IMG/VR virus record: IMGVR_UViG_3300042534_000372
Coordinates: 1 to 56,714 of that record
Strand: one strand, 5' to 3'
From: a virus
Lineage: Duplodnaviria > Caudoviricetes
Length of the DNA: 56,714 bases
The notes under the pieces were generated by a model, which saw nothing but the letters and a program-made list of their open reading frames with translations, did not search any database and had not been told where the DNA came from. The position numbers were made by a program, and so were the translations under genes. Of the stretch, positions 12,361-54,292 are shown piece by piece (position 1 is the stretch's first letter; every line of letters starts with the position of its first letter).

Positions 12361-12478
12361 ATCATTTAGTTTATCCCATAAAGTTAATCATTTTATAGCA
12401 TATAAAAAAACCCTCCGATTTGGAAGGGTTTACGGACCGGATCAAAATTAATTAATATAAACGATTCCAGTATGTTTG

Positions 12479-12549
12479 TGATCTAACGGGAGTCGAACCC
12501 TATCTTTCAGCTTTTCTGGCTGCGTGCTCTCCGTTACACTATTAGATCA
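12479..12549 (-). tRNA. Degenerate tRNA-like element (possible GAA/Phe anticodon)
   Basis: TGATCTAA/TTAGATCA acceptor stem, GTG/CAC D stem, CAGC/GCTG stem, GGGTTCGACTCCC T arm; non-canonical positions. Confidence 0.45.
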
Positions 12550-12672: not shown

Positions 12673-12876
12673 CTAATCCATCAACCCACACTCTTCTATT
12701 AAGTCCTGAAGACTCATTATTCTTGATGCAATTTGCTTTGGTAAGTATTTTATCATTTCTTCTTTTCTTTTGCCTCCAACCATACTGCCTTCTTCTACAA
12801 AAGCATCTGTCATGGCTAATATGCCAAACAACTCATTTCTTATTTGTCTTTTGGATAATACTCTTTTGTTTTCCAT
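12673..12876 (-). CDS. Hypothetical protein
   Basis: ORF track, co-oriented with neighbours. Confidence 0.6.
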   Translation of the reverse strand: MENKRVLSKRQIRNELFGILAMTDAFVEEGSMVGGKRKEEMIKYLPKQIASRIMSLQDLIEECGLMD

Positions 12877-13081
12877 AATTACGAATTCTTTTTATTTTGT
12901 TTAAACCATCTTTCAAAATCTTTCCTGTAGTCTTCTGAATCATTCAAATGTTCAGGATTAGTGAATGATTCAATCAGTTTCCAGCAAATCGCTTTTACTT
13001 CAGTATTTGTGTAAATATACATTTCTATTTTTTTTGCCATATAGTTTTAATTGATTAATAATTTATTTTAATAGATTTTAT

Positions 13082-15558: not shown

Positions 15559-15915
15559 TCAGAATGGTAAATCATCAGTCTCTTCGTCTGGCGTTGTCAT
15601 TGGCTCTATATTATTAGCCTGTGCAGACTGAACCTTTTCAATCCTCCAAGCTTCAAGACTATTGAAATAATTAACTTTACCGTCCTTTTCCCATTTACGA
15701 CCACGAACATTAAAGTGAACCTTTACCTCTTCATTAAGGATCACAACGTCTAATAAATCGCATCTATCCTGTGTTAATTGAAATTTGATAAAATCATTCC
15801 ATTCTGAATTTCTTTCGTTTTCAACCTCAATAACAAACTCACGCTTTTTGAATTTATCACTAATTGATTGTGTCTCTTCTTTTACTATTACCTTACCGTT
15901 AATTTCGAAATTCAT
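15559..15915 (-). CDS. DUF3127-family single-stranded DNA-binding protein
   Basis: FKKREFV, FNVRGRKW, YFNSLEAWRI, acidic DDLPF tail. Confidence 0.9.
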   Translation of the reverse strand: MNFEINGKVIVKEETQSISDKFKKREFVIEVENERNSEWNDFIKFQLTQDRCDLLDVVILNEEVKVHFNVRGRKWEKDGKVNYFNSLEAWRIEKVQSAQANNIEPMTTPDEETDDLPF

Positions 15916-15918
15916 AAT

Positions 15919-16188
15919 CTATTTGTCTTTTTTTGTGAAATTCATAAATTGAGAAGCTAATCTATTAGCCATATAATTCATCTCCAATGGATCTAATTTG
16001 TTGCCAGTTAATCTTCCGATCATAAGCATTGGCATTAATGTGGACAAAGCGTGTGTAAAGTGGTTTGCATTATCTCCCTCAGAAACCTCATCAAGATCTA
16101 TGTGGTTTTCACAATCCTCATCGAACATTTCATTTATCTGCAACAACATTAATGCTGCATACTCTTCGTATTTTTCTCTTGTTTTCAT
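15919..16188 (-). CDS. Hypothetical protein
   Basis: ORF track. Confidence 0.65.
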   Translation of the reverse strand: MKTREKYEEYAALMLLQINEMFDEDCENHIDLDEVSEGDNANHFTHALSTLMPMLMIGRLTGNKLDPLEMNYMANRLASQFMNFTKKDK

Positions 16189-16198
16189 GATTTATTTA

Positions 16199-16498
16199 TT
16201 AATGTTTAACATCCTGATCTTTATAATAAGCCTCTTTAAGCTCTTGTTTCTTCTCGTTGAATATATCATACTGTTCTTGCCTTGCGTGTTCTTCTGGCGT
16301 ACCTAAAAGTATGTTATCTGGATTTAAACGATATGCAGGATAAGCACCTTTCGAAAGCACGTGTAAAAATTGGAAGTGCCATTTAGGATGATTAATGTGG
16401 TAAAGTTGATTGCCTGACAACTCAGATTTATAACCGTTGGTCTCGCCTCTTGTTTCCCAAATAAATAAAAATAATTGTTTTTGAGTTTTAAACTTCAT
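16199..16498 (-). CDS. NinG/HNH-like small nuclease-fold protein
   Basis: HVLSKGAYP..RLNPDNI....EEH motif. Confidence 0.65.
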   Translation of the reverse strand: MKFKTQKQLFLFIWETRGETNGYKSELSGNQLYHINHPKWHFQFLHVLSKGAYPAYRLNPDNILLGTPEEHARQEQYDIFNEKKQELKEAYYKDQDVKH

Positions 16499-17195
16499 AA
16501 TTAATAAGCTTTAAATATGCCATGTTAGAAATATAACTCTTAAATTCTTCGGCTAATCTCAATATTTCATTTGTTTTTATTTCTTTGTACTTACGAATAG
16601 CATCAGTTTTATTTTCAAAATTACCAACGTACAGCCTGTCACTGTCATACGTTACCCTTATGGAATATTTATTATATTTAGATGAGTATCTATACCCAAA
16701 AGACTTCCTTAATACTGTATTTATTTTTGAGGGTAAAAAGCAACACGTTTCTGGAGAATATTTAGTACCATCACCAATCAGATCCTTATCTAATTCGAAT
16801 CCATTGATATAATTATCGTAATACCAATTTGCAAAATTTTGATAATTCAACCACCTCATACATACACAAACATTACTATATGTAGAATTATTAGATCTAC
16901 TTCCATAACACCTATCTAGCATGCTATTCCAAGTTGTATAAGCCTTTTCCTTAATACCACAACTCATTGATCTATGCTTCCCAATGCCAATATATCCAAT
17001 TCCATATTTAAATGGCCTCATAACATCCTTAACCCTTCCGCTCTTTATTGAGCACATTGATACGCTTGATACTGTGCCAGTCATTGCGAATATTATGTCT
17101 ATGTCATGGTAGGATCTATATTTAATTATCATAAATTCACCATAGTTTTTTGATTCAAAAACCATTCCGTCATACTCCATCTTTTTATTTCTCAT
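16488..17195 (-). CDS. HNH-type homing endonuclease with AP2-like C-terminus
   Basis: WNSMLDRCY, WLNYQNFANW, ELDKDL...YSPETCCFLP motifs. Confidence 0.85.
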   Translation of the reverse strand: MRNKKMEYDGMVFESKNYGEFMIIKYRSYHDIDIIFAMTGTVSSVSMCSIKSGRVKDVMRPFKYGIGYIGIGKHRSMSCGIKEKAYTTWNSMLDRCYGSRSNNSTYSNVCVCMRWLNYQNFANWYYDNYINGFELDKDLIGDGTKYSPETCCFLPSKINTVLRKSFGYRYSSKYNKYSIRVTYDSDRLYVGNFENKTDAIRKYKEIKTNEILRLAEEFKSYISNMAYLKLINYEV

Positions 17196-17336
17196 CTTTT
17201 TACTTTAAAGATACGAATAATAAGTAAAATCATAATCAAGTATTAAACATTTCTTTTTGTGTTTTGAATTTATGCATGGCAATTACATTTAGGACAGCTT
17301 AAATAAAGCCTCGCATCATATTCATGCCCACAATTA

Positions 17337-17735
17337 TTACACACTTCCCAAATCTCGTGATTTCTTAAATGCTTTGAACGACTCCTTAATGTCTTCTGTT
17401 GTTGGTAGCTCATATTCTATCGGTTTATTTTTTGGTGTAAAATGTAACTTCTGAAATGCAGTTAAAGGTTTTGCGTGATTGTGTAATGGTCTTTGATCCC
17501 AATCAGACATATCGGTATGGTTCCGGTTGCGTTCTCTTATTACGTGATCTAATCCGAACTTTTTAATCTTATTCCTTTCGACTGCGTTGAGGTATGCCTT
17601 TAATCTTCTTTCTAGATCTAATCTATATGGCAATGCTTCCGGCTTTCGCTCTTCTTCTCTTTCGATCTCAGGAGACTCTTGCACCCCCTGTTCTCTCATA
17701 TATAAAAAATCTTCTCTATTGCTTTGCATTGTCAA
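17337..17735 (-). CDS. Hypothetical protein
   Basis: ORF track. Confidence 0.6.
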   Translation of the reverse strand: MTMQSNREDFLYMREQGVQESPEIEREEERKPEALPYRLDLERRLKAYLNAVERNKIKKFGLDHVIRERNRNHTDMSDWDQRPLHNHAKPLTAFQKLHFTPKNKPIEYELPTTEDIKESFKAFKKSRDLGSV

Positions 17736-18381
17736 GCTCCTTAGTAATAAGTTCTTTATTCTTTTTACTCCACTTATATTTAAGTAGCGATTCGATAACG
17801 TATTGTTTTTTTGTGGGAATAGCCTTGATCATAGCGGTAACCTGTTCTTCCGAAACCCAATCCAACGAATCGCCAAATCCAAATTTGTAATCTTTAGGTG
17901 CTTGCGGTGTTTTAATATCGTCAGAATGAGTACTATCTGCGTCATCAATCTTGCCTACTGGAGTAAGGAAAGTATAAAGTAAACAGTTTTTAAGTGCATA
18001 TGTTGTAGCCTTACCAGCTCCTTTGTCTTGCGGGTCAATTCCGTGACCATAGCCAGCAAGCTCTATACTTTCCCCGCTTTCGTGTAGTAATATGTATTTA
18101 GTCTTAACCTTTGTGAAAACCGACTGTTTTGTTTTAAAATCTTTTGGTGTAGATTTACTGTATGGATCAACCTCTTCCCATCGATCTATTTGTGTTTCTT
18201 CTTCGATTCCAATAGGCAGAATGCAAAGTCCATTCTGTTCTAATGCATCGTTAAACACATCCGCAACATCCTTGTATTTAGTTCCGTCATAAGCCGAATT
18301 ACCAGTTCCGACACGGCTGTTTTTTTCCATTCCTTTAACAATCTTCATTACTGAAATAATTGCTTTTGCTATATTTTTCAT
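17716..18381 (-). CDS. erf: ERF-family ssDNA annealing protein
   Basis: LLHESGES, DKGAGKATTYALK, DDAD motifs. Confidence 0.85.
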   Translation of the reverse strand: MKNIAKAIISVMKIVKGMEKNSRVGTGNSAYDGTKYKDVADVFNDALEQNGLCILPIGIEEETQIDRWEEVDPYSKSTPKDFKTKQSVFTKVKTKYILLHESGESIELAGYGHGIDPQDKGAGKATTYALKNCLLYTFLTPVGKIDDADSTHSDDIKTPQAPKDYKFGFGDSLDWVSEEQVTAMIKAIPTKKQYVIESLLKYKWSKKNKELITKELDNAKQ

Positions 18382-18391
18382 TTGGTTTAGT

Positions 18392-18796
18392 TTAATTATA
18401 AGTGAAAATAAAATCTTCGTACCCCTGCATTTGTGGCGATGGTAAATAAATACTTTGCTCTTCTGCTACGAATAATCTAATCTTTTCTAAATAGTCCGTA
18501 AATTCTTTCGTGTCGTTATCTGGAGTGCTTTTAATCCTTAATTGCTTAACTCCAAATATTTCAACTTCTTCAATTCCTAGAAACTTTTCAGCAAAATATT
18601 TATGAAGATCGTTTTTATCGTTTCCAGTTTCATCTTGTATGCATGTAAGCCACATCCAATATAGAGAATTTTGTTTTACTGATCTTTTATTTTTGTGTTC
18701 GGTAAGATCAATTTTAGCTTTCTTTTCGATAAGCATTTTGCCTCGTAATCGAAAACGCTCAACGTCTAACGGTTTATTTAGGTCTAATTTCATCAT
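18392..18796 (-). CDS. NinB-like recombination protein
   Basis: RSVKQNSLYW, LHKYF..KFL, ST....KEF..YLEKI motifs. Confidence 0.75.
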   Translation of the reverse strand: MMKLDLNKPLDVERFRLRGKMLIEKKAKIDLTEHKNKRSVKQNSLYWMWLTCIQDETGNDKNDLHKYFAEKFLGIEEVEIFGVKQLRIKSTPDNDTKEFTDYLEKIRLFVAEEQSIYLPSPQMQGYEDFIFTYN

Positions 18797-18983
18797 CCGA
18801 ATATAAAAAGTAGAAAAATCATTAGCGCTATTCCTGCGATTATTGGAGAAATACACTCCAAATCTTTCATTTTTTGCTTGCAACTTCTGCCTTGTTCGCT
18901 CATTTCATTTAGTTTTTTGGTTTAAACAAATCTATGAATTCTACAATCAAATTAAGAATCTTTAGATATGTTATAAAACATGT

Positions 18984-19468: not shown

Positions 19469-19502
19469 TGGGTTTTATTTAAAAGGTGCGTTTACCGAAT
19501 CA

Positions 19503-19766
19503 TTACCATCCATACTCAGGAAAGTATTGCTTTACTAATTTAGAGTTACCAATATTAGGGTTATACCAAATAAGCTTTTGCCTTTCATTCATACTTTCTT
19601 TTATACAATGTGGGTGTGCAGTCCATATAAAAATATACGCTCCACCTTCTTCTAATATAGCATTTACTGCCATCGTTTGGTCTTTCCAACCTTCTCTGTT
19701 CTGGAATTTTATGCGTTTATTTTTATCAAGTTGCCCTAATATTTCTGCTAGTTGTTGTATTTTCAT
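19503..19766 (-). CDS. Cassette hypothetical protein
   Basis: Its TAA stop is the core of the terminal site. Confidence 0.7.
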   Translation of the reverse strand: MKIQQLAEILGQLDKNKRIKFQNREGWKDQTMAVNAILEEGGAYIFIWTAHPHCIKESMNERQKLIWYNPNIGNSKLVKQYFPEYGW

Positions 19767-19861
19767 TCTATTAAGTTTTTAGTTTGTACGTATGGTAATA
19801 TTAAATAAATTTCATTTCGTACCTCAACAAATCTTATTCCTGCTCATTATAAAGCAGTTTG

Positions 19862-20164
19862 TTAATATACACAACCGCATTTTCTGCACTTAAAAACAAC
19901 GCCAGTGCTTCCATATTGGACTTCCTCGTAAGCATGATCACAAACCGCCGCTTCGCTCTTTATAATATCAGGTAAATTTAATGCTTCACCAGTTTTATTT
20001 TCAGCCCCACTCGCTTGCTGTAATTTTAGTTTTTGGTTCTCTTTTTTAAGCTCCCTAACTTGGTCATCTAATTTATCAATACACTCACTAACATCAAACA
20101 TGTCTTCTGGTGCTTCAAGTCCTGCTAACTTACAATTATCTATTACTCTTTGCCAATCGCTCAT
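19862..20164 (-). CDS. Cassette protein crossing a hairpin arm, C-terminal Zn-ribbon
   Basis: LNLPDIIKSEAAVCDH...CRKCGC. Confidence 0.75.
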   Translation of the reverse strand: MSDWQRVIDNCKLAGLEAPEDMFDVSECIDKLDDQVRELKKENQKLKLQQASGAENKTGEALNLPDIIKSEAAVCDHAYEEVQYGSTGVVFKCRKCGCVY

Positions 20165-20248
20165 TACTTAGTTTTTAAGGTTATTTACTATTAATTTAGC
20201 TCATAGTATTCACGCACTAAACTTACCATTATCATTACCTGCAATATT

Positions 20249-20437
20249 TTATTTTTTGCCACCGCACTTACAATTTTTCAAATTGTTTAGGAATTGTCTT
20301 AGTGGCTCTTCCCAATGCTCAGCAAGTTTTTGAGAACCATTCACTGCCTTTACAAGTGTTGTATCAGGCATTTTCAATTGTCGCTCTATACCTCTAAGGC
20401 TTAGCGAGTGTTTATTTTTTCTTAACCAGTTAATCAT
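20249..20437 (-). CDS. Small HTH protein (paralog of 48980 and 53945)
   Basis: WLRKNK..LRGIERQLKMPDTTLVKAVN. Confidence 0.75.
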   Translation of the reverse strand: MINWLRKNKHSLSLRGIERQLKMPDTTLVKAVNGSQKLAEHWEEPLRQFLNNLKNCKCGGKK

Positions 20438-20441
20438 ACTA

Positions 20442-20603
20442 TTACCAAGATTGAATCATCATTAAACAGTCGTTTCTAGCATCTCTTGCATCAACATATA
20501 ATTGTTTGTTTTCTGCGGTTTTATTGCTCATGAAAACTTTAAGTGCTTTTTTAGTTTCAATACGGTGTTGTTGAAAATCGTTTCTTAATTCTTGAAGTGT
20601 CAT
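20442..20603 (-). CDS. Cassette hypothetical protein with own promoter
   Basis: ATG at 20603; TATATTTG element near 20632-20639. Confidence 0.6.
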   Translation of the reverse strand: MTLQELRNDFQQHRIETKKALKVFMSNKTAENKQLYVDARDARNDCLMMIQSW

Positions 20604-20806
20604 AGTATTAGTTTTTTCGTTAAACAATACCCAAATATAAGGGTAATATATTTAATATCCTAATATAAAGGTAAAATAAAAAAATCCATCCCTAAAAAAT
20701 AAAACAAAGCAGGTAACACTAAATAAAATTCATTTCGTTCCTCAACGAAATCTTATTCTTGTCCATTATGGAATCATAACGCTCACTCGTGCCTCGTTCC
20801 CTCAAA

Positions 20807-20986
20807 CTAACTACATTCAAAAATTTCACAATCGTCGAAATCTATAAATCCTATGTGGTCACCTGGTAAATTAACCTCATATTTACTAGAGTGGGGATCG
20901 CCATCATTAATTGGAGTAAAGATTTCTCCTATTCGATCATTGTACCACCAATTATCATTACTGCATTTTGTTATTTTAACTTTCAT
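20807..20986 (-). CDS. Cassette hypothetical protein (MKVKITKCSNDNWWYNDRIGE...)
   Basis: 59-aa ORF read manually. Confidence 0.65.
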   Translation of the reverse strand: MKVKITKCSNDNWWYNDRIGEIFTPINDGDPHSSKYEVNLPGDHIGFIDFDDCEIFECS

Positions 20987-21276
20987 ATCAAATAAATTTT
21001 TAAATTCCCGTTAGTATTATGATCTTCAATGTTGTTTGGCTTTCAACACACGAAAATCTTGACAATGTGAGCGTAACGCTCCTCAATAAACAGTTAAACT
21101 TCATTCAGCCTCTATATTGATCGTTCCTCACAATGAGGCTTTACGAAGCTTAGCCAAACAACATTATGGAATCATTAAAACGAAAAGCTAACATGCAATA
21201 AAAAACATGCTTACTTTTCGTTCTCGTATCAGCTTTAGTGGGTTATCGGGCAATTTTAAATAAAAGCCCACGCACA

Positions 21277-21513
21277 CTATAATAGCATCTTTTCCATCTC
21301 ATTTCTAAACGCCTGAGCATTTGGTTGCCCATACTTATTCATTGCAATTACAGCCTTTTCTTCCTCTTCAAATCCGAGTTTTATTTGTGCTGTAATGCCA
21401 TCTAAATCAGTCCTAATTGCAACTTCATACTTATCATCTTCATCGTTGTATTCAATTGTCAATAAAACTTGTTCGTCATTCTCAATTTCGATTAATCTTG
21501 CAAATTTTGCCAT
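21277..21513 (-). CDS. Hypothetical protein wholly inside a hairpin loop
   Basis: Lies between arms 21564-21593 and 21186-21210. Confidence 0.75.
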   Translation of the reverse strand: MAKFARLIEIENDEQVLLTIEYNDEDDKYEVAIRTDLDGITAQIKLGFEEEEKAVIAMNKYGQPNAQAFRNEMEKMLL

Positions 21514-21598
21514 CGCTTTTTTATTTAAAATTAGTACTCGTATTTAGTTTTGTGCGTTATTTCGCACGTTTCTTATTGCTGTCCATTACAAACAACCT

Positions 21599-21913
21599 CT
21601 AGCCACTAATGCCGCTCAGTTTGTCTGTCATTTCTTTTTGCATTTTGTCCTTCAGTACATTTTTGAAAGTTTCGGCTGTGCATCCGTACATCGGGCAGGT
21701 TTTTAGCTTAGCTGTATCAATCATACATTTACCTCTACTAAAAAAGTCACTACTTTGGTCGTCTGGGTCTGCTATAACCCTGCCCTTGCAAGCTAAATCA
21801 TTCAAGGTGCAAATGCAAAAAGAGGTAGCATCTCCACTTAAATGGTATTCGTAGTTCTCGTTTGTCAGTGCGGGGCAAGTCGCTCCCTTTTGTGGTGTAA
21901 TTAAAGTTTTCAT
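21599..21913 (-). CDS. Cys-rich cassette protein
   Basis: ORF track. Confidence 0.7.
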   Translation of the reverse strand: MKTLITPQKGATCPALTNENYEYHLSGDATSFCICTLNDLACKGRVIADPDDQSSDFFSRGKCMIDTAKLKTCPMYGCTAETFKNVLKDKMQKEMTDKLSGISG

Positions 21914-22062
21914 ATTCTATTTATCTTTTAGTTTATATTTAAAAATCGGCAGTTTGTAACACTAAATATATGTAAGCTTCGTTCCTCAGCCTCCACATAT
22001 TCATCACATTAGGTGCAATTTAATATTTAATAATTGCCACCGCACTATTAGTTTTTTCAAAA

Positions 22063-22944
22063 CTATTTATGTCTGTTCATCCAATCTTGCACGTACCACA
22101 ATTGCCCACAACCTCCACCAATATCATCCTGTCCAACAGGGTCGAAAACTCTAACATTATATCCACACTCTAAAAAACTAGCTGAAATTTCGTTAATTCT
22201 GTCAAGTTCTTTATATCCTTTATCTTTCATGTTTTCATCAGCAGAGCAAATAACACTGAATGTTAGGTTGAAAACAGCAGGGCTAAACAGGTCTTTTAGG
22301 CGGTTCATTTCATCATCGCTTTGGTTGTGCTCTCCAATGCAGTAATTAATGTAAACAGGTCGCTTGGTTAGCTTATTCCACTCAATGCCAGTATCACGCA
22401 TCTCACGCAATGTAAGCTTGTTTTTAAATGGTATTAAAGCATCTCTTTTTATTTCGATTGCCTCGTGTACACTAAATTGCAATCCTACCTTGTCAATGTC
22501 GTTACTTACTTCAAATAATCTTTCAAATGCTTTGGGTTTTTTAGCTGCCATTGTACTAAGTAACAGTTCTGCATTTGGGTAAAGGTTATTTAAGTCTCTA
22601 ATTGCTTTTTCTACATTTTCAAAATTAAGCATCGGCTCACCCATACTCATAAACATTATTTGGAAGCGTTCACCAACAGCATTAATGTTTTCAATATTCA
22701 TGTCTCTTAAGCAATGTTTTACTTGGTCAACTATTTCACGACTCGTAAGGTTTCTAATAAACATCTTACCAGTTCCGCAAAACTTACAACCCACAGGACA
22801 TCCGCTTTGTACACTTACACACAATACTGTTCGTTTGTAAAAATCCTCGTATCTGTAAAGCACAGCTTCTGCAACTGCATTTTCAAAATCAAATACATAC
22901 TTCCAAACATTGTTATCTGAACTATCAAATCTTTTCGTTTCCAT
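22063..22944 (-). CDS. RlmN/Cfr-like radical SAM protein lacking the N-terminal domain
   Basis: CVSVQSGCPVGCKFC (CxxxCxxC), MSMGEP, DIGGGCGQL. Confidence 0.9.
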   Translation of the reverse strand: METKRFDSSDNNVWKYVFDFENAVAEAVLYRYEDFYKRTVLCVSVQSGCPVGCKFCGTGKMFIRNLTSREIVDQVKHCLRDMNIENINAVGERFQIMFMSMGEPMLNFENVEKAIRDLNNLYPNAELLLSTMAAKKPKAFERLFEVSNDIDKVGLQFSVHEAIEIKRDALIPFKNKLTLREMRDTGIEWNKLTKRPVYINYCIGEHNQSDDEMNRLKDLFSPAVFNLTFSVICSADENMKDKGYKELDRINEISASFLECGYNVRVFDPVGQDDIGGGCGQLWYVQDWMNRHK

Positions 22945-23042
22945 AATTTAAAAAATAAAATTTGCCTACGCTTCGCTTTTTAATTAGCTATATTAATATT
23001 GTTTTGTTCTAAATTGTCACCACTCACCTAACATTCGATCCA

Positions 23043-23393
23043 TTAGCGGTCATTATAATCATGTATAAATTCGCTAAAATCTGGTGTAGGGTTACTTACT
23101 AAATGCCCTGCCATTGTTATTTTTGATTGTTTACTATAATGTTCACATGAACGCTCATAGATTGCACCCGCTTTAAATGATTCTCTCATATCTAATTCAG
23201 AGAAACGACCGCTAACAAGCGGTATATTGCAGTTGCTATCGCTTTTTTCAACACCGTTCGCTTGCTTCGTCTGTTCTTCAAGGTAAGCTAATCTTTTTAA
23301 CCTTCGTAAAACATCTTCCTCAAACATTGTATGTCCGTTTTCAATAAATTTCTTTTGCTCGTATCCAGTTACTTTCTTGTATTCGTATTTCAT
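23043..23393 (-). CDS. Cassette protein crossing a hairpin arm
   Basis: CNIPLVSGRF...NDR*. Confidence 0.75.
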   Translation of the reverse strand: MKYEYKKVTGYEQKKFIENGHTMFEEDVLRRLKRLAYLEEQTKQANGVEKSDSNCNIPLVSGRFSELDMRESFKAGAIYERSCEHYSKQSKITMAGHLVSNPTPDFSEFIHDYNDR

Positions 23394-23791
23394 AATCGCT
23401 CACTATTTAAGTTATTCAACATTTATTCATTTAATCAAAGTCGGTGGGTATTTGAACGGCAACCGACAACATACCGCAAGCCGATTATAAACAAATAAAA
23501 TTATCTACGTTTATTTCTCTTTTTCCGCTTTAATTTATTTTTTAAACATATAGCATTGTGTTTGCTTGTATTTCTTCCTGTAGTTATTTCTGTACCAAAC
23601 ACCTTAAAGCTTTCTATTAAATCATATTGTAAGCTTGAATGCTCGTTTCCTATTGGGTTCATAATTTTCTCAATTTATAATATAAATGTAAAAATCATAT
23701 TTAAGTACACTTATATAGTTGATTAATAATATTTTATATTTTGGTCACCTTATCAGTGAGGTGACCAAATACGATTCTTACATTCGATCCA

Positions 23792-24001
23792 TTATAAATC
23801 AACAATCTCAATACCTTTCCCTATTAATTTCAAAAACTTCTCAATCCATAATAACTTGTTTTGCAAAGCTGTTAACTTTTGTGGAACATCACAAGGCTCA
23901 CAATCTAATACTACCGATTGATCTACACGCTTCGGATATTCTGCTTTTAATTTATCGTAAATCTTTTGAACGGGTTCTATGTATCCTTTAGGCTTCCTCA
24001 T
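23792..24001 (-). CDS. Hypothetical protein
   Basis: ORF track. Confidence 0.5.
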   Translation of the reverse strand: MRKPKGYIEPVQKIYDKLKAEYPKRVDQSVVLDCEPCDVPQKLTALQNKLLWIEKFLKLIGKGIEIVDL

Positions 24002-46847: not shown

Positions 46848-46907
46848 TGTATTATTAATGGACAAGGCTAAGGGTAGTTTTTAAACCGATTAATAAAATA
46901 AAACAAA

Positions 46908-47165
46908 ATGAGTGAAATTAATAGATTAGAGATATTGGCGAATAGTTGTATAAAACACAACTGCTCCTTTTCAGGATTTGAGAGTAATGCGATAATTGAA
47001 GCCATGTTAGAATACCACAAAAGCGAGGTTGAAAAATTACCTTTAGCTAGTATTAACAACCGAAGGGAACTGTTAATTGCTGTATTCAAACAGGTGAAAG
47101 GTGTTACAATACCCGAAACAGATGAACAGATAGAATACCTCGTTGATAAATACAGCAATTTATAG
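46908..47165 (+). CDS. Cassette protein crossing a hairpin arm
   Basis: KLPLASINNRRELLIA...NL*. Confidence 0.75.
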   Translation: MSEINRLEILANSCIKHNCSFSGFESNAIIEAMLEYHKSEVEKLPLASINNRRELLIAVFKQVKGVTIPETDEQIEYLVDKYSNL

Positions 47166-47269
47166 TTGTTAATGAATAGGTGTAAGAATAGTGCGTGATT
47201 GAATACAGATAAATATTAATTAAATACAAACCGCCCGAACCGAATGTGCGAGGGCAAAAACCAAACAAA

Positions 47270-47428
47270 ATGAAATATACTTACTTGATAATGTTTTTAC
47301 TTGCACTAGTTGCTTGGATCTATTGCGCAGTTAATTTAGAGCTAATTGAAATGTGGATTTCACTAGCCTTTATATGGATTGGTGTATTAGGAATGCGAGC
47401 GGAGGGGAATGGTGATAATAGATATTAG
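47270..47428 (+). CDS. Small two-TM protein inside a hairpin loop
   Basis: MKYTYLIMFLLALVAW... Confidence 0.65.
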   Translation: MKYTYLIMFLLALVAWIYCAVNLELIEMWISLAFIWIGVLGMRAEGNGDNRY

Positions 47429-47583
47429 CATTATTTTTACATAGTATTATAATACTGCGCCAAAGCCTTTGTTTCAATTTTGAGTATAACGATACTTTGG
47501 CGTGGTTTATAATGATAATAATAAGAACCGTGCGATATTTAGCACAATTTTAATACGAGTTACTAATTAAAAATAAAAAAGCG

Positions 47584-47877
47584 ATGGAAAAGAATTGTAA
47601 TAATTGCGAAAAGGTAAATGGTTGCACAATGAAAGCTTACTGCAAGGGGCACAGACTTAATTATTGCAGATTTTACGAAGTGGAAGCAAAGCCTGTGATA
47701 GAAGAAAATGAATTTAAAACCAAGTTAAAAAACTTTGAAGACGCGGCAAGACCTTTAATTAAATGGCTTTGCGAAAACGAGCACCCAATGGTAACTGCAA
47801 TAATAACGACAACATCATGTGAGCTTTTAGAGGGCAAGTGTTGTAACCATAAAATATATGATTACGTTAAAGATTAG
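47584..47877 (+). CDS. Hypothetical protein inside a hairpin loop
   Basis: FEDAARPLIKWLCENEHP motif. Confidence 0.75.
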   Translation: MEKNCNNCEKVNGCTMKAYCKGHRLNYCRFYEVEAKPVIEENEFKTKLKNFEDAARPLIKWLCENEHPMVTAIITTTSCELLEGKCCNHKIYDYVKD

Positions 47878-48076
47878 TGCGTAGGGTTTTATTTTTAACA
47901 ACTTAAAAACGAGAACCAGACTTAAGCATGGTTTTTATTTAATATTATAATACTTCGCCAAAGCCTTACTTGAATTTTGAGTATAACGATACTTTGGCGT
48001 GGTTTATAATGAGCAGGGCTTAGTTGCGTTTAAACTAAATTTGATACGATAACACAAACTAACAAGACAAAGAGCG

Positions 48077-48382
48077 ATGGAAGAAACATTAAAAAAATAC
48101 GGAATAAGTAAGCAATTGTTTTTAAAGGTTACTGAGTTTATAAAACTACAAGTTGACTTAGGTATGATTAATACCCTTACTGACCAAGAGCAAATAGCAG
48201 CAGAAATATTAATAATGGCGAGCGAGGGGATTAAGCTGAAAACGAGTAATGATAAATGCAATTTAGCTAGTATTAACAATAGCGAAGCGATGGGTTGCGA
48301 GCACAAAAATTATTCATATACATTAAATAACGATACAAAACTATGTGATGATTGTGGGTGTATATTTGAGCGAGAAAACTGA
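48077..48382 (+). CDS. Cassette protein crossing a hairpin arm, C-terminal Zn-ribbon
   Basis: CNLASINNSEAMGCEH...CDDCGC. Confidence 0.75.
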   Translation: MEETLKKYGISKQLFLKVTEFIKLQVDLGMINTLTDQEQIAAEILIMASEGIKLKTSNDKCNLASINNSEAMGCEHKNYSYTLNNDTKLCDDCGCIFEREN

Positions 48383-48432
48383 TTGTTAATGAATGGTGGT
48401 ATGGTTAGATTTTTAACGACTTAAAAGAACGA

Positions 48433-48696
48433 ATGATGATAGTATTAACAGACCAAGATTTAGAAGAAATAGTTGCAACTGCACACATGGCAGGACAGCA
48501 AAAAGCAGGGGTTAAAACACCAACTTATTATGATGCACACCTTTATTATGCGAGGCAAGTTAAAAAATTAACTATACCACGTGTTAGCAAACGAAGTGAA
48601 CTGTTAATTGGCTTGCTTGAAATGCTCGAAAAAGAAGGTGGTAATGATTTTATAGATAAAGCTGAAATAGTAGCAAAATATGAAGCCAATTTATAG
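48433..48696 (+). CDS. Cassette protein crossing a hairpin arm
   Basis: KKLTIPRVSKRSELLIG...NL*. Confidence 0.75.
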   Translation: MMIVLTDQDLEEIVATAHMAGQQKAGVKTPTYYDAHLYYARQVKKLTIPRVSKRSELLIGLLEMLEKEGGNDFIDKAEIVAKYEANL

Positions 48697-48744
48697 TTGC
48701 TAATGAATGGCTAAAGTTACTTTTAAACTTAAACATCTGATACA

Positions 48745-48979: not shown

Positions 48980-49156
48980 ATGAGCGAATCAATTAAATGG
49001 TTACAGAAAAATAAACGCTTTATAAAGATTAGCGTAATTGAAATTGAGCTTGGAATGGCAGATACTATCTTAAGTAAGGCCGTGAATGAAAAACAGGCAT
49101 TATCTAAACATTGGGATAAGCCTTTGAATGAGTTTTTAACAGAATTAAAGAAATAG
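48980..49156 (+). CDS. Small HTH protein (paralog of 20249 and 53945)
   Basis: MSESIKWLQKNKRFIKISVIEIELGMADTILSKAVNE, read manually. Confidence 0.7.
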   Translation: MSESIKWLQKNKRFIKISVIEIELGMADTILSKAVNEKQALSKHWDKPLNEFLTELKK

Positions 49157-51312: not shown

Positions 51313-51459
51313 ATGAGAAAACTAATAGACATTGAAGGAGAATTAGACAAAGAAGGTTCTTTAGTCAATAAGCTTAATGTAATGGCTGCGAAGAAAGGTA
51401 AGTATTTAAAAAACTACATCGAGGATGTTTTGAAAGATCATGTTGATAAAAGTAAGTAG
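51313..51459 (+). CDS. Ribbon-helix-helix-like regulator heading array C
   Basis: MRKLIDI...KLNVMAAKKGKYLKNYIEDVL; TATATTTG at 51275-51282. Confidence 0.6.
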   Translation: MRKLIDIEGELDKEGSLVNKLNVMAAKKGKYLKNYIEDVLKDHVDKSK

Positions 51460-51526
51460 TTGTTAACGGATTACGGCTATGAAGCGTTGCCGATTAAAAC
51501 GCTATAACTTTCAAATTTAAACTAAG

Positions 51527-51679
51527 ATGAGTAAAGAGAACAAAAATTCGGATAAGCAACAAAACGGCAATGATTTTATAGCCGATGTTACCAAACGTTA
51601 TTACTTAACCAAGGATAGACAGGGAAATTACCAAATATTAAATGAGTTGGCTTATGAAAAGAAGTTGATTTACGGATAA
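51527..51679 (+). CDS. Cassette peptide (MSKENKNSDKQQNGNDFIADVTKR...)
   Basis: 50-aa ORF starting in a loop, read manually. Confidence 0.55.
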   Translation: MSKENKNSDKQQNGNDFIADVTKRYYLTKDRQGNYQILNELAYEKKLIYG

Positions 51680-51766
51680 TGTTTGGTAATGAGCATTGGT
51701 AAGTTTTGAACCGATAATAACCGATTAATTTCGATACGAGTAGTAATGTAAATTAAAATTTTTATC

Positions 51767-52108
51767 ATGAATATAGAACAGGCAATAATAGATATTAAAC
51801 ACTTTAGTCAAACCCATATAGATTGGGCGGAGTATTTTGAAAAAAACCCAAACATTGAGAGTGAGTATTTAAAAACTGGCAAATGGAGTTCCGCAATAGA
51901 ACATCGCGAAATAGTTTCAAAATACGATAATGTTTTAAAAATTTTAGAACATGCAAAGACTGAAACGAGTAATAAAGATGAGGTTTTAAATTTACCTGAT
52001 GTTATAAAATCGTGCGACAACTGCAAATTTGTTAAAGAGTGTAGACATAAAGGATTAGCTGATAATGAAAAAAGAATATGCAAATTTTATGTTGAGCATG
52101 TTTTATAA
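51767..52108 (+). CDS. Cassette protein crossing a hairpin arm
   Basis: LNLPDVIKSCDNC; stop is the TAA core of the next site. Confidence 0.75.
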   Translation: MNIEQAIIDIKHFSQTHIDWAEYFEKNPNIESEYLKTGKWSSAIEHREIVSKYDNVLKILEHAKTETSNKDEVLNLPDVIKSCDNCKFVKECRHKGLADNEKRICKFYVEHVL

Positions 52109-52167
52109 CGTTGAATGTAAGGTGCGTTGCTGTACCAATGTTAAACAAAGAATAAAACTTAAATATT

Positions 52168-52401
52168 ATGAGCAAAAATAACAAAAAAGATACTGAGCAA
52201 TGCACTTTACATAGTGTTATAGAGAGTGCCTTGCCATGCCCTTTTTGTGGTGGTACTAACTTAGCTTTTATTAGTGATGCTGATGGAGATAGAGACGTTG
52301 AATTTATAGTTTGCATGGCTGATAACTGCCTTGCAGATGGTAGAATAGGTAAAAATAAAGAGGATGCTTTAAATAAGTGGAACAAAAGGCATTCTCTATA
52401 A
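52168..52401 (+). CDS. Lar-like (restriction alleviation) Zn-finger cassette protein
   Basis: LPCPFCGG...C...C...A..KWNKR. Confidence 0.7.
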   Translation: MSKNNKKDTEQCTLHSVIESALPCPFCGGTNLAFISDADGDRDVEFIVCMADNCLADGRIGKNKEDALNKWNKRHSL

Positions 52402-52447
52402 CGTTTATGGTATGGATAGTAAATTAACGATTAAATAAAACTGAATT

Positions 52448-52759
52448 ATGAAATTAGCAATAGAGATATTAAACAGAGAGATAGCACAGCGAAAGTTAGC
52501 AAACAAACACGAACATTTAAGAAAGGATGTGTGTACACAAGAATTGAAAGAGCTTGAAAGTGTAGTTAATTTATTAGCTATACCAATTGTTAGCGTTTCG
52601 TTGTTTGATACATTACAAGACTTAATAGAAGTGTACGAAGAAAGAGAAACCAAAGCAAGCAAGATGGGAAATTGGAGTGAGGCCTTCCAAAACGAAATAA
52701 GGGTAGGTGTATTACAGCATTTAGCACAATTGCATAAACATAAAAACAATGAACGCTAA
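52448..52759 (+). CDS. Cassette protein crossing a hairpin arm
   Basis: NLLAIPIVSVSL. Confidence 0.7.
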   Translation: MKLAIEILNREIAQRKLANKHEHLRKDVCTQELKELESVVNLLAIPIVSVSLFDTLQDLIEVYEERETKASKMGNWSEAFQNEIRVGVLQHLAQLHKHKNNER

Positions 52760-52819
52760 CGGTCGCAGGTATGTTTAGTGCCTGATTTAGAAGTAAAAAC
52801 AATCAAAATATAAATAACG

Positions 52820-53035
52820 ATGAAAAAAGAACAAAACTTGAATACAGCAAAACAACAGGCATTAAATATACCTGTTGTTAGCGGTCGTTTTTTTGAAGTG
52901 TTTGACAAAGAAAATGATTATAATTTAGCTGTTGATTTAAAAAACTATGTTAATGAGCATATATTTAAACACTTAGTTAATAATTATGATTTAAAAATAA
53001 CTTATCGTGAATGGTTGTCGCAAAATGACCGCTAA
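52820..53035 (+). CDS. Cassette protein crossing a hairpin arm
   Basis: QALNIPVVSGRF...NDR*. Confidence 0.7.
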   Translation: MKKEQNLNTAKQQALNIPVVSGRFFEVFDKENDYNLAVDLKNYVNEHIFKHLVNNYDLKITYREWLSQNDR

Positions 53036-53102
53036 TGAACAAGAATATGGGCTGATTGCCCTTGAAAATTAGTATAAATTTTAATTAAAAACAGATAAGA
53101 TT

Positions 53103-53429
53103 ATGAAACGTAGAAATTTAATTAGCAAAACGGCAATTTGCCTATATTTAGTGTTAGCAGTATGTTATTCTTCTTTTTCACAAGAGGCTGACACTGTTAA
53201 AATAGATACTACAGTTAATAAAATATGTTTGGAGCGTGGGCATGTATCTGTCGGGGTAATTATGAAAACAGCAATGTACTGCACCCCGTATAGTATAGAT
53301 ACTGACAGCACAACAGTAATGGTTTACCCCGCTTGCAATTACGAAAGTTTTACATGTAAAAGATGCGGTAAGTATGTTAGCCAATTAGAAAAGGAGCGGA
53401 GGGTTGTAATTTGGCGTAAAGAAGAATAA
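53103..53429 (+). CDS. Cassette protein with signal peptide and Zn-ribbon
   Basis: Hydrophobic signal region is encoded by the hairpin arm; CKRCG. Confidence 0.7.
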   Translation: MKRRNLISKTAICLYLVLAVCYSSFSQEADTVKIDTTVNKICLERGHVSVGVIMKTAMYCTPYSIDTDSTTVMVYPACNYESFTCKRCGKYVSQLEKERRVVIWRKEE

Positions 53430-53612
53430 TTACTGCTAATGAACAATTGCAAGATGGCGTTGAGGCACGAAATGCATTTTGCATAGCATTATAGGTTTTA
53501 ATAATTAAAATTTTGGGAGGGGTTTATTTTTCTTCATTTTTTTATCTTTATATTAGGATACTAAATATATTACCCGTATATTTGGATAAACAATAACACT
53601 AAAACATACGAC

Positions 53613-53939
53613 ATGAAAACTTTTATAAAATTAATAACATTAATAGTAGTATTATCATCATCAACACTAGCTAGCGCAAATCACGATAATCAGACAGAGA
53701 TAAATCATTCAAAATACGACACTATTGTTTGTGATTTCTTATCGTCGCAATCTCCCAATATTGTCATTAACCGTATTGATTTTAACTTTTTCTTATCAGC
53801 ACTAGAAAGAGTCGGGTTTAATTGCGCGATAGATTCGGATAGATATAATATGACCAGGGTAATTAATGGTGCAACTATAAAAATTCAATGGAGTGTTACT
53901 GGTTACAATACGACTTTTACTAAAATGGAAATTAAATAA
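53613..53939 (+). CDS. Secreted hypothetical cassette protein with own promoter
   Basis: Signal peptide; TATATTTG near 53577-53584. Confidence 0.7.
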   Translation: MKTFIKLITLIVVLSSSTLASANHDNQTEINHSKYDTIVCDFLSSQSPNIVINRIDFNFFLSALERVGFNCAIDSDRYNMTRVINGATIKIQWSVTGYNTTFTKMEIK

Positions 53940-53944
53940 ACAAC

Positions 53945-54124
53945 ATGTCAAAAAACTTAATGAATTGGATAAAGCAGAATAAACGCTTTGTTAAAATACG
54001 TGCTATTGAGCAAGAATTAAAGATGCCTGACAGTACATTGATAAAAGCTGTGAACGAAGTACAGAATTTACCTAAGAAGTGGATTAAACCGCTGAATGAA
54101 TTCCTAATTACTTTGAAAAAGTAA
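53945..54124 (+). CDS. Small HTH protein (paralog of 20249 and 48980)
   Basis: WIKQNKRFVKIRAIEQELKMPDSTLIKAVNE, read manually. Confidence 0.72.
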   Translation: MSKNLMNWIKQNKRFVKIRAIEQELKMPDSTLIKAVNEVQNLPKKWIKPLNEFLITLKK

Positions 54125-54292
54125 CAGTGCGTAGGCAATTTTAATTTTATTACCTATAATGAATGGCTAAAGTTACCTTTTAAACAAAACCCAATGAATA
54201 TGCACCGTTTAAATATTCAAGTGTGCATATTTCGTTACATTACAATTACACGTGAGTAATAATAGTTACACTAAAATTTAAAAATAAACAAA

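Follow-up and report, generated by a model that had tools for sequence, protein, structure and literature searches.

Hairpin-bounded gene cassettes in a phage genome and in Bacteroidia chromosomes point to an overlooked, shared integron-like shuffling system

We describe three runs of small accessory genes, about twenty in number, in the genome of a presumed Bacteroidota phage, the 56,714-base virus record IMGVR_UViG_3300042534_000372 (hereafter the window, which is the whole record), in which the genes are bounded by imperfect hairpins resembling the attC sites of integrons. Array A (~19.5-23.8 kb) lies on the minus strand, array B extends from 46.86 to 48.74 kb and array C from 51.46 to 54.2 kb. 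Together with sites of the same family in Bacteroidia chromosomes, these hairpin-bounded cassettes point to an overlooked integron-like shuffling system that phages and bacteria share. Because the window codes for no recombinase, and because both the sites recognized by our covariance model R1 and a linked recombinase are present in Bacteroidia, we interpret the arrays, with a probability of about two in three, as integrase-less cassette arrays of a structure-specific attC-type site, a variant widespread in Bacteroidia, for which the host would supply the recombinase. An earlier first-pass annotation, made from the sequence of the window, had proposed such integron-like, integrase-less mobile cassettes, and each check that was run was favourable to this interpretation. 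In agreement with its statement that an apparently complete genome lacked a tyrosine recombinase, the record is rated 100% complete and a six-frame search gave no match to PF00589; hence the window has no intI gene beside an array, as a complete integron would. A serine recombinase and a Y1 transposase were also searched for in the window, and none was found.

The arrays are tiled by two types of helix in alternation, a hairpin and then a cross-match helix. Read on the gene strand, the order of a unit is X′ (the end of the previous cassette body), the left core TAAY followed by G, 5-7 nt, stem arm S, a loop, arm S′, 2-4 nt, T followed by the right core RTTA, and finally X, with which the next body starts. 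The cross-match helix is formed by X and the X′ that precedes the next TAAY, so that the arms outside the right core, which measure 8-24 nt, pair with the opposite end of the cassette to which they belong. In the core helix, Y-A-A-Y-G is paired with T-R-T-T-R and ends in a conserved G.T pair, since the residue after the left core is G in 22/23 sites and the residue before the right core is T in 19/20. Left cores are TAAT in 19/23 cases and TAAC in 4/23, and right cores GTTA in 12/20 and ATTA in 8/20. The unpaired spacer is asymmetric (5-7 nt on the 5′ side versus 2-4 nt on the 3′ side), being 2-4 nt longer on the 5′ side at every site. The covarying stem measures 10-22 bp and the variable terminal loop 9 to ~430 nt, and by core-to-core length the sites fall into short sites (51-55 nt), canonical units (110-125 nt) and long-loop sites (190-434 nt). 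The loop usually contains an A-rich leader, an ATG and the first 12-90 codons of the downstream gene; at two sites it contains a whole small gene, and at the four short sites it consists of 9 nt with the motif TGAGGNACGAA. The hairpins thus enclose start codons, and no run of T residues follows them. A minimum free energy fold of region 51440-54260 displayed unbroken tiling from 51998 to 53496, with adjacent arms 2-7 nt apart.

The sites and cassettes are given below; bit scores refer to model R1.

51464..51590 (+): site C1, a TAAC ... GTTA hairpin whose loop has the start of gene 51527-51679; 97 bits
51687..52004 (+): site C2, TAAT ... GTTA with a 15-nt stem; gene 51767-52108 starts in the loop and lies there for the most part
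52106..52219 (+): site C3, a canonical unit measuring 110 nt from core to core, with the start of the Lar-like gene in its loop; 87 bits
52168..52401 (+): Lar-like cassette gene, 77 aa; PF14354, E = 6e-10, residues 22-74
52216..52402 (+): 17-nt cross-match helix closing the body of the Lar-like cassette
52399..52592 (+): site C4, 21-nt stem, 190 nt core to core; 38 bits
52757..52880 (+): site C5, the example given in the first-pass annotation; 20-nt stem with two G.T pairs; 105 bits
53033..53156 (+): site C6, canonical unit, 120 nt; 86 bits
53437..53491 (+): site C7, short form of 51 nt without a gene start; loop TGAGGCACGAA
53488..54160 (+): cassette closed by ATTATAGGT / ACCTATAAT, with a promoter-like element (53499-53596), gene 53613-53939 and a gene for a 59-aa protein (53945-54124)
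54157..54200 (+): terminal half-site of array C, TAATGAATGGCTAAAGTTAC..., which recurs where array B ends (48701)
46856..48742 (+): array B, with sites 46856-47055, 47170-47449, 47510-47947, 48007-48275 and 48387-48586, and the terminal half-site at 48701
47271-47428 and 47584-47877 (+): whole-gene loops of two array B sites
19470..23794 (-): array A, with sites 23678-23794, 23213-23487, 21957-22011, 21189-21588, 20714-20768, 19963-20237 and 19796-19849
23032-23045 and 19505 (-): other array A junctions, the former degenerate, the latter a terminal half-site

The estimate of about 20 hairpins in the first-pass annotation held upon curation, which gave 19 hairpins, the degenerate junction at 23045/23032 and 3 terminal half-sites. 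Its description of each hairpin as having a different sequence was partly correct: the sequences of the units do differ, with an average column identity of 47% when aligned, but they share a consensus (G and T at the cores, and a TATG...AGT motif in the 5′ arm) and a single covariance model finds them. The example hairpin was recovered, with 52766-52784 pairing with 52856-52874 (19 nt, 89%) between the flanks GCTAAC and GTTAGC, as were the quoted cross-matches 52216-52232 / 52386-52402 (17 nt, 94%), GTTACCAAAC at 51587 with GTTTGGTAAT at 51681, GTTAGCGGTC at 52877 with GACCGCTAAT at 53027, ATTATAGGT at 53488 with ACCTATAAT at 54152 and, on the minus strand, GTTACCTGC at 20717 with GCAGGTAAT at 20237. 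The Lar-like protein illustrates how site and gene are combined: its residues 1-16 come from the hairpin loop, and its Lar restriction-alleviation domain starts only past the GTTA junction.

The tiling and the cross-matching are real and far beyond chance. A search for chains of alternating hairpin and cross-match links found 15 links in array C (score 172) and 11 in array B (score 113); in 40 dinucleotide shuffles of the window, no chain exceeded 5 links or a score of 43. The flank outside a right core matched that of the next left core with a mean score of 9.7 (n = 20), compared to 5.05 for its own left core (n = 20) and 4.1 for 420 other combinations (Mann-Whitney p = 1e-12 and 2e-5). Flank matching no better than in shuffled controls had been named beforehand as the outcome that would speak against mobile cassettes, and the values obtained lie far above the controls. 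Strong inverted repeats occur at 2.0-3.7 per kb inside the arrays and at 0.4-0.8 per kb in the rest of the window.

We aligned 20 canonical units of ~120 nt, analysed the alignment with RNAalifold and built the covariance model R1 from it. RNAalifold identified 20 pairs, 15 of which displayed compensatory double changes. Among the 23 mismatches in the ungapped repeats of the arrays, which were chosen regardless of mismatch type, 15 were G.T on the gene strand and none was A.C (p = 6e-5). Likewise, the core combination C.A was found in none of 20 hairpin pairs and none of 20 cross-match pairs, and DNA folding of the short sites gave the G.T-tolerant strand as the more stable one in 4/4. The sites are therefore, like attC, imperfect hairpins of one strand in which structure is kept over sequence. 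Applied to the window, R1 produced 11 hits at E <= 0.01 (5 of them used in training), all within arrays A, B and C and on the gene strand. In phage material as a whole it found 56 sites, again all on the gene strand, and none in the loci of terminase relatives.

The first-pass annotation had suggested that a covariance model be built from the sites and that Bacteroidota genomes be searched for such sites beside tyrosine recombinases. Both steps gave positive results: R1 recovered sites in Bacteroidia as well as the window arrays, and in Bacteroidia the same site family adjoins a family of tyrosine recombinases. We searched 151 sampled Bacteroidia genomes and obtained R1 hits in 90 (89/150 without one unpublished genome), with a best E value of 1e-14 and up to 21 clustered hits per genome. 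The bacterial sites are located 0-35 nt past the stop codon of ordinary accessory genes, such as those for a GmrSD-type nuclease, Por-tail proteins and a LigB dioxygenase, and copies within an array are strictly co-oriented. The tiling is also present: locus L054 gave a chain of 15 links (score 174) and locus L060 one of 11 links (score 155), with units of 120-123 nt and cross-matches of 9-15 nt. In 44 distinct bacterial units outside the training set, 94.7% of the cells pair, compared to 70.6% after shuffling and 30-50% when the partner was slid, and AAC.GTT and the adjoining G.T were each found in 44/44. Bacterial sites lie on the strand opposite to the adjoining gene in 40/46 cases (3 same, 3 without a gene), whereas phage sites lie on the same strand in 28/34. 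The folding strand thus does not follow transcription across bacteria and phage, which argues for a structure at the DNA level rather than in mRNA; our initial reading of the G.T strand bias as an mRNA structure was overturned by the bacterial sites being antisense to genes. In a separate observation, the sole Rfam match beside a bacterial array was to whalefall-1 RNA (RF01762, 52 bits, E = 4e-11), at 12855-12908 (-) of L054, ~1 kb from the end of the array.

A tyrosine recombinase of 377-402 aa adjoins the arrays in three genomes (G010, G117, where this occurs twice, and G108). The four proteins are 34-43% identical to each other over their full length and their catalytic residues are invariant. 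They contain Phage_int_SAM_4 and Phage_integrase domains, as integron integrases do, and in addition ~100 uncharacterised N-terminal residues. The NCBIfam model that fits them best is "site-specific tyrosine recombinase/integron integrase", and the integron-integrase model matches them in two pieces with 193-214 bits, under its cut-off of 265. Just one of the 301 Bacteroidia genomes sampled contained a true IntI scoring above the curated cut-off. One of the four proteins is 33% identical to this IntI, with a gap exactly at the IntI insert ALERKYP...WVFP. The contig of this IntI contained no R1-type site within 16 kb as judged by R1 and a crude scan for AAC...GTT hairpins. The linked family is present in 79/151 genomes at E <= 1e-60: site and recombinase are both present in 64 genomes, the site only in 26, the recombinase only in 15 and neither in 46 (odds ratio 7.5, p = 2e-8, a statistic that ignores shared ancestry). 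Among the matches listed there are 15 same-contig pairs, in which the recombinase is located upstream within 15 kb and the sites are on the opposite strand.

Related arrays are present in other phages. Through the 59-aa protein family encoded in the arrays we reached 11 viral loci, and tiling was also found in L021 (27 links, score 319), L017 and L019. The cultured Polaribacter phage P12002L displays the same tiling, in chains of 14 links (score 161) and 8 links, together with the same loop motif; its cores are all YAAC/GTTR and its cassettes include DNA methyltransferases. No tyrosine recombinase was detected in five other array-bearing phage records, two of which are complete with terminal repeats; P12002L is also complete. 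What these phages have in common with the window and with each other is limited to pieces the size of a cassette, up to 85-94% identical at the nucleotide level, and the remainder of their genomes is unlike. Moreover, a homologous cassette consisting of a promoter-like element, a variable gene and the 59-aa gene is closed by three different, internally complementary end pairs in array C, array A and L021. The 59-aa proteins form a four-helix family with one copy in or beside each array (53945-54124 (+), 48980-49156 (+) and 20249-20437 (-)); its genes are up to 85-90% identical at the nucleotide level to those of otherwise unlike phage contigs, and two copies are present on a contig of a Draconibacterium metagenome-assembled genome (L027). 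A confident fold of four helices is predicted for it (pLDDT 88.6), but its matches in the PDB all have E > 5 and are XRE-like in shape only, and we assign no role to it. A conserved non-coding element of ~100 nt (53499-53596 (+) and 20597-20708 (-)) is always located upstream of the variable gene and the 59-aa gene, and is 79-94% identical to elements of eight other phage loci. The element ends in a TAnnTTTG-like box, a motif that we take to be promoter-like.

Between 5 and 10% of the sequence of arrays B and C is covered by contigs from three other studies. Of the 91 loose ends of these contigs 22 were listed; 17 of those lie inside the arrays, and two more were set aside as being the window's own array A sequence. 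The breakpoints were enriched at the cores, and not unrelated to them as the first-pass annotation had considered damaging to its proposal: among the listed loose ends, 8/17 are within 5 nt of a core versus 7.9% expected (p = 2e-5), and 6/13 when the probable source run was left out. In addition, the TAAT-to-ATTA unit 47170-47440 recurs between unlike flanks with 1 difference in 271 nt. With 22/91 loose ends listed and a likeness threshold of 85%, these data are supporting evidence rather than a census. Two joints from the probable source run, 47591->53540 and 52897->47561, were considered as circle junctions and rejected, their loose letters being the window's array A, mapped by paralogy.

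We infer that recombination takes place on folded single-stranded DNA. According to this proposal, the site would fold on one DNA strand and crossover would occur within the core of a cassette that is circular or looped out; the complementarity between cassette ends is the footprint expected from such a crossover. The recombinase would be provided in trans by the host, and the candidate is the IntI-related family, without the hallmark insert and with the extra ~100-aa N-terminal domain, that is encoded upstream of the chromosomal arrays; in the phage, a host member of this family probably catalyses the reaction. The polarity of the phage arrays is inverted compared to that in bacteria, in that the genes are on the folding strand and the start codon is in the hairpin loop, so that the loop of a site doubles as a translation-start module. 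A broader proposal, to which we give somewhat less than even odds, is that Bacteroidia possess a widespread but unrecognised integron-like system with its own site and integrase families, and that virulent phages build inverted, integrase-less arrays of accessory and anti-defence genes from it that are shuffled by the host enzyme.

Several results weigh against the host-catalysed cassette interpretation. No circle, excision or recombination product was seen, and contig data cannot show rare forms. A tblastn search of 27 window array proteins against the bacterial array loci (218 kb) gave zero hits, a result that lends no support to direct exchange of cassettes between phage and host. Several features that define canonical attC are missing from the sites, and the linked recombinase differs from canonical integron integrases. 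In the window the conserved triplet is AAT instead of AAC at the 19/23 left cores mentioned above. Its co-occurrence with the sites was calculated ignoring shared ancestry, and the same-contig pairs were picked from listings showing ~150 of 331 site matches and 107 recombinase places, so that they give no count of misses. Furthermore, breakpoints occur at both cores and at inner stem edges, with interiors swapped and arms kept (46891->47020, 46903->47026, 47079->47156 and 47081->47154 are skips that replace an interior), which the single crossover point of the canonical integron model does not predict. Finally, the phage's own Erf, NinB and SSB recombination genes could do the shuffling.

The last two points are the strength of the main rival explanation, according to which the same sites are shuffled without a site-specific enzyme by Erf/NinB-mediated single-strand annealing or by template switching, in a manner similar to the PeSL motifs of T4-type phages. 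The genes for the Erf-like, NinB/Orf and SSB proteins are right beside array A, some variants keep both stem arms and swap the interior only, with breaks at both cores and stem edges, and PeSL-flanked genes are described as circularising without a dedicated recombinase (PMC2839356). The sequence common to the cores is however just ~5-10 nt, and units that are on average 47% identical provide poor homology; homologous exchange also leaves the asymmetric spacer, the strand-specific G.T pairs, the complementarity of cassette ends and the bacterial recombinase linkage unexplained. We therefore consider this explanation unlikely. That the helices act in mRNA, presenting start codons in open loops and insulating cistrons, with module boundaries resulting from selection on RNA folding, would account for the G.U-tolerant strand being the sense strand in the phage and for the A-rich loops carrying start codons; moreover, arrays B and C start just after TAnnTTTG boxes that we take to be promoter-like. 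This is improbable, given that the bacterial element with the same conserved G.T is antisense to the adjoining gene at 40/46 sites, and that cross-match arms also enclose cassettes with an internal promoter-like element (53488/54152 and 20717/20237).

The uniform size of ~120 nt, the many copies per genome and the intergenic location would also suit a selfish miniature repeat (REP/MITE-like) spread by a transposase and unrelated to cassette exchange. The flanks of the sites, however, pair across whole cassettes, copies within arrays are strictly co-oriented, stems covary rather than being copies of each other, and the linkage is to a tyrosine recombinase and not to a transposase, with no Y1 transposase in the window; we regard such a repeat as very improbable. 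There is an equally slim chance that these are ordinary attC sites served by canonical IntI. HattCI plus Infernal did call two attC sites in P12002L, one of which was recombined by IntI1 (PMC9892861), but among the Bacteroidia genomes sampled IntI was found only in the 1/301 mentioned, on a contig lacking R1-type sites within 16 kb, and neither the unpaired-spacer nor the extrahelical-base features of attC are present in the sites. Other candidates were discarded for specific reasons. RNase III cleavage at the hairpins would cut genes; for translational bypass the take-off and landing codons do not match; a kink-turn at the spacer lacks GA pairs; mini-ORFs (open reading frames) starting in the 5′ arm are inconsistent across sites; the core TAA serves as stop codon at only 7/22 sites; and IS200/IS605-type ends do not agree with the absence of a Y1 transposase and the symmetric ends.

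Some additional sequence elements recur in the arrays. Five exact copies of the loop motif TGAGGNACGA(A) are present in the window, all on the array strand (53461-53470 (+); 19817-19826, 20735-20744, 21121-21130 and 21979-21988 (-)), and the motif is also found in a short site of P12002L, at ~38060 (-) of locus L026; it could be a protein-binding loop. The motif AGTGCG(G/T)(T/A)GGCAA followed by an A/T-rich run recurs between the ends of cassette genes and the left core (54125-54138 (+), 22034-22046 and 20256-20268 (-), with weaker copies near 47877 and 21275), and is also found in L021 and P12002L. Array B contains two copies of a 68-nt gene-less cassette (47446-47513 and 47944-48010 (+)), bounded by ATTA and TAAT and with a single GC-rich hairpin (CGCCAAAG...CTTTGGCG), which may be a terminator carried as a cassette. 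A non-coding stretch of ~170 nt at ~21020-21190 (-) contains a long inverted repeat (CCATAATGTTGTTTGGCT ... AGCCAAACAACATTG) with an internal TGAGGAACGA and is off the simple site pattern.

The window phage looks like a siphovirus. It codes for a large terminase, portal and tape measure proteins, an HNH nuclease and DNA methylases, and also for TerS, SSB, Erf-like, NinB-like and DnaD/DnaC-like proteins; the genes for SSB, the Erf-like annealing protein and the NinB/Orf mediator (15559-18883 (-)) directly adjoin array A. A tRNA-Phe (GAA) gene (12478-12548 (-)) has the packaging genes on one side and a series of small genes on the other, and a tRNA was the sole match in an Rfam scan of the window, in which the array sites had no match. 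A cassette of array A encodes a radical SAM protein of 293 aa (22063-22944 (-)) that appears distantly related to RlmN/Cfr RNA methyltransferases; it reaches 102 bits on TIGR00048, for which the cut-off is 290, and 79-87 bits on Cfr models, for which the cut-offs are 530-550, values far too weak for naming a function. Searches revealed no close relative of the phage: when 11.9 kb of its structural genes were compared with cultured phages by megablast there were zero matches, and its best terminase relatives, at 47% identity, are without arrays. The sequencing runs listed as holding window sequence included no RNA dataset.

Integrons are regarded as nearly absent from Bacteroidetes, for which the IntegronFinder 2.0 paper mentions, as earlier finds, only cassette-less integrases and one complete integron (PMC9024848). 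A literature search with limited coverage of subscription journals turned up no account of the tiling, of the site family or of its Bacteroidia recombinase, although the system may be in print elsewhere; this also holds for the accessible text of PMC9024848, PMC8618304, PMC2426708, PMC8138268, PMC4615864 and PMC8776804. If our interpretation is correct, a working cassette system would be an overlooked gene-capture platform of a major bacterial class. A link to defence is suggested by the content of certain chromosomal cassettes, such as the one with the GmrSD-type nuclease. Virulent phages would gain a mechanism, dependent on a host enzyme, for generating mosaic accessory regions, and because of the Lar domain in a window cassette and the DNA methyltransferases in those of P12002L, the phage cassettes may serve counter-defence. 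A site supplying both a start codon and an N-terminal tag would represent a new principle in the design of cassette expression.

The ends of integron cassettes are complementary across the cassette, and the arrays described here share this property as well as being arrays of co-oriented accessory genes. Like integron attC, the sites are imperfect hairpins of one strand with an R-box-like core, for which agreement with AAC/GTT is equivocal in the window, a spacer, a covarying stem and a variable loop, in which structure is kept over sequence, and in Bacteroidia the folding strand is moreover the bottom strand and a related tyrosine recombinase is encoded beside the array. attC sites are described as an imperfect bottom-strand hairpin of 57-141 bp with an R box AAC/GTT, a 5-6 nt unpaired spacer in each arm and 2-3 extrahelical bases (PMC5027507). 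Here, in contrast, the spacer is asymmetric (5-7 versus 2-4 nt), conserved G.T pairs take the place of conserved extrahelical bases or bulges, none of which is present (in attC these are near L″), and the triplet in the window is mostly AAT/ATT. The cross-match of 8-24 nt exceeds the ~7 nt of integron cassettes, the linked recombinase differs from IntI in lacking the insert, in its extra N-terminal domain and in being co-oriented with the cassettes, and, unlike in integrons, the folding strand of the phage is also the gene strand, with the genes starting in the loop of the site.

The CTX phage integrates as a folded single strand through the host XerCD recombinase, and thus also lacks its own recombinase and relies on a host tyrosine recombinase acting on a single-stranded DNA hairpin, as we propose here; the CTX system differs in having a single attachment site for integration of the whole phage instead of arrays of gene cassettes. 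PeSL elements of T4-type phages are likewise repeated intergenic stem-loop motifs that flank small orphan genes in plastic genome regions and mark exchange points without a dedicated recombinase; they consist of a conserved promoter plus terminator and recombine by homology, whereas the sites described here differ in sequence, covary in structure, enclose start codons and have ends that cross-match (PMC2839356). Judged by the 47% column identity, the enclosed start codons and the lack of a T-run, and with no promoter scan made, the units of the window do not share a promoter-plus-terminator motif of this kind. There is also a similarity to CALINs, clusters of attC sites without integrase, which have been published in phages, including P12002L with two predicted sites, one of which was recombined by IntI1 in E. 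coli; the portion of that report available does not confirm the tested sites as the present hairpins (PMC9892861). Both are integrase-less attC-like clusters in virulent phages, and P12002L shares the tiling and the loop motif of the window. Where two P12002L sites were predicted we found chains of 14 and 8 links, and the tiling, the start-codon loops, the Bacteroidia site family and the linked recombinase are additions to what the accessible text of that paper describes (PMC9892861).

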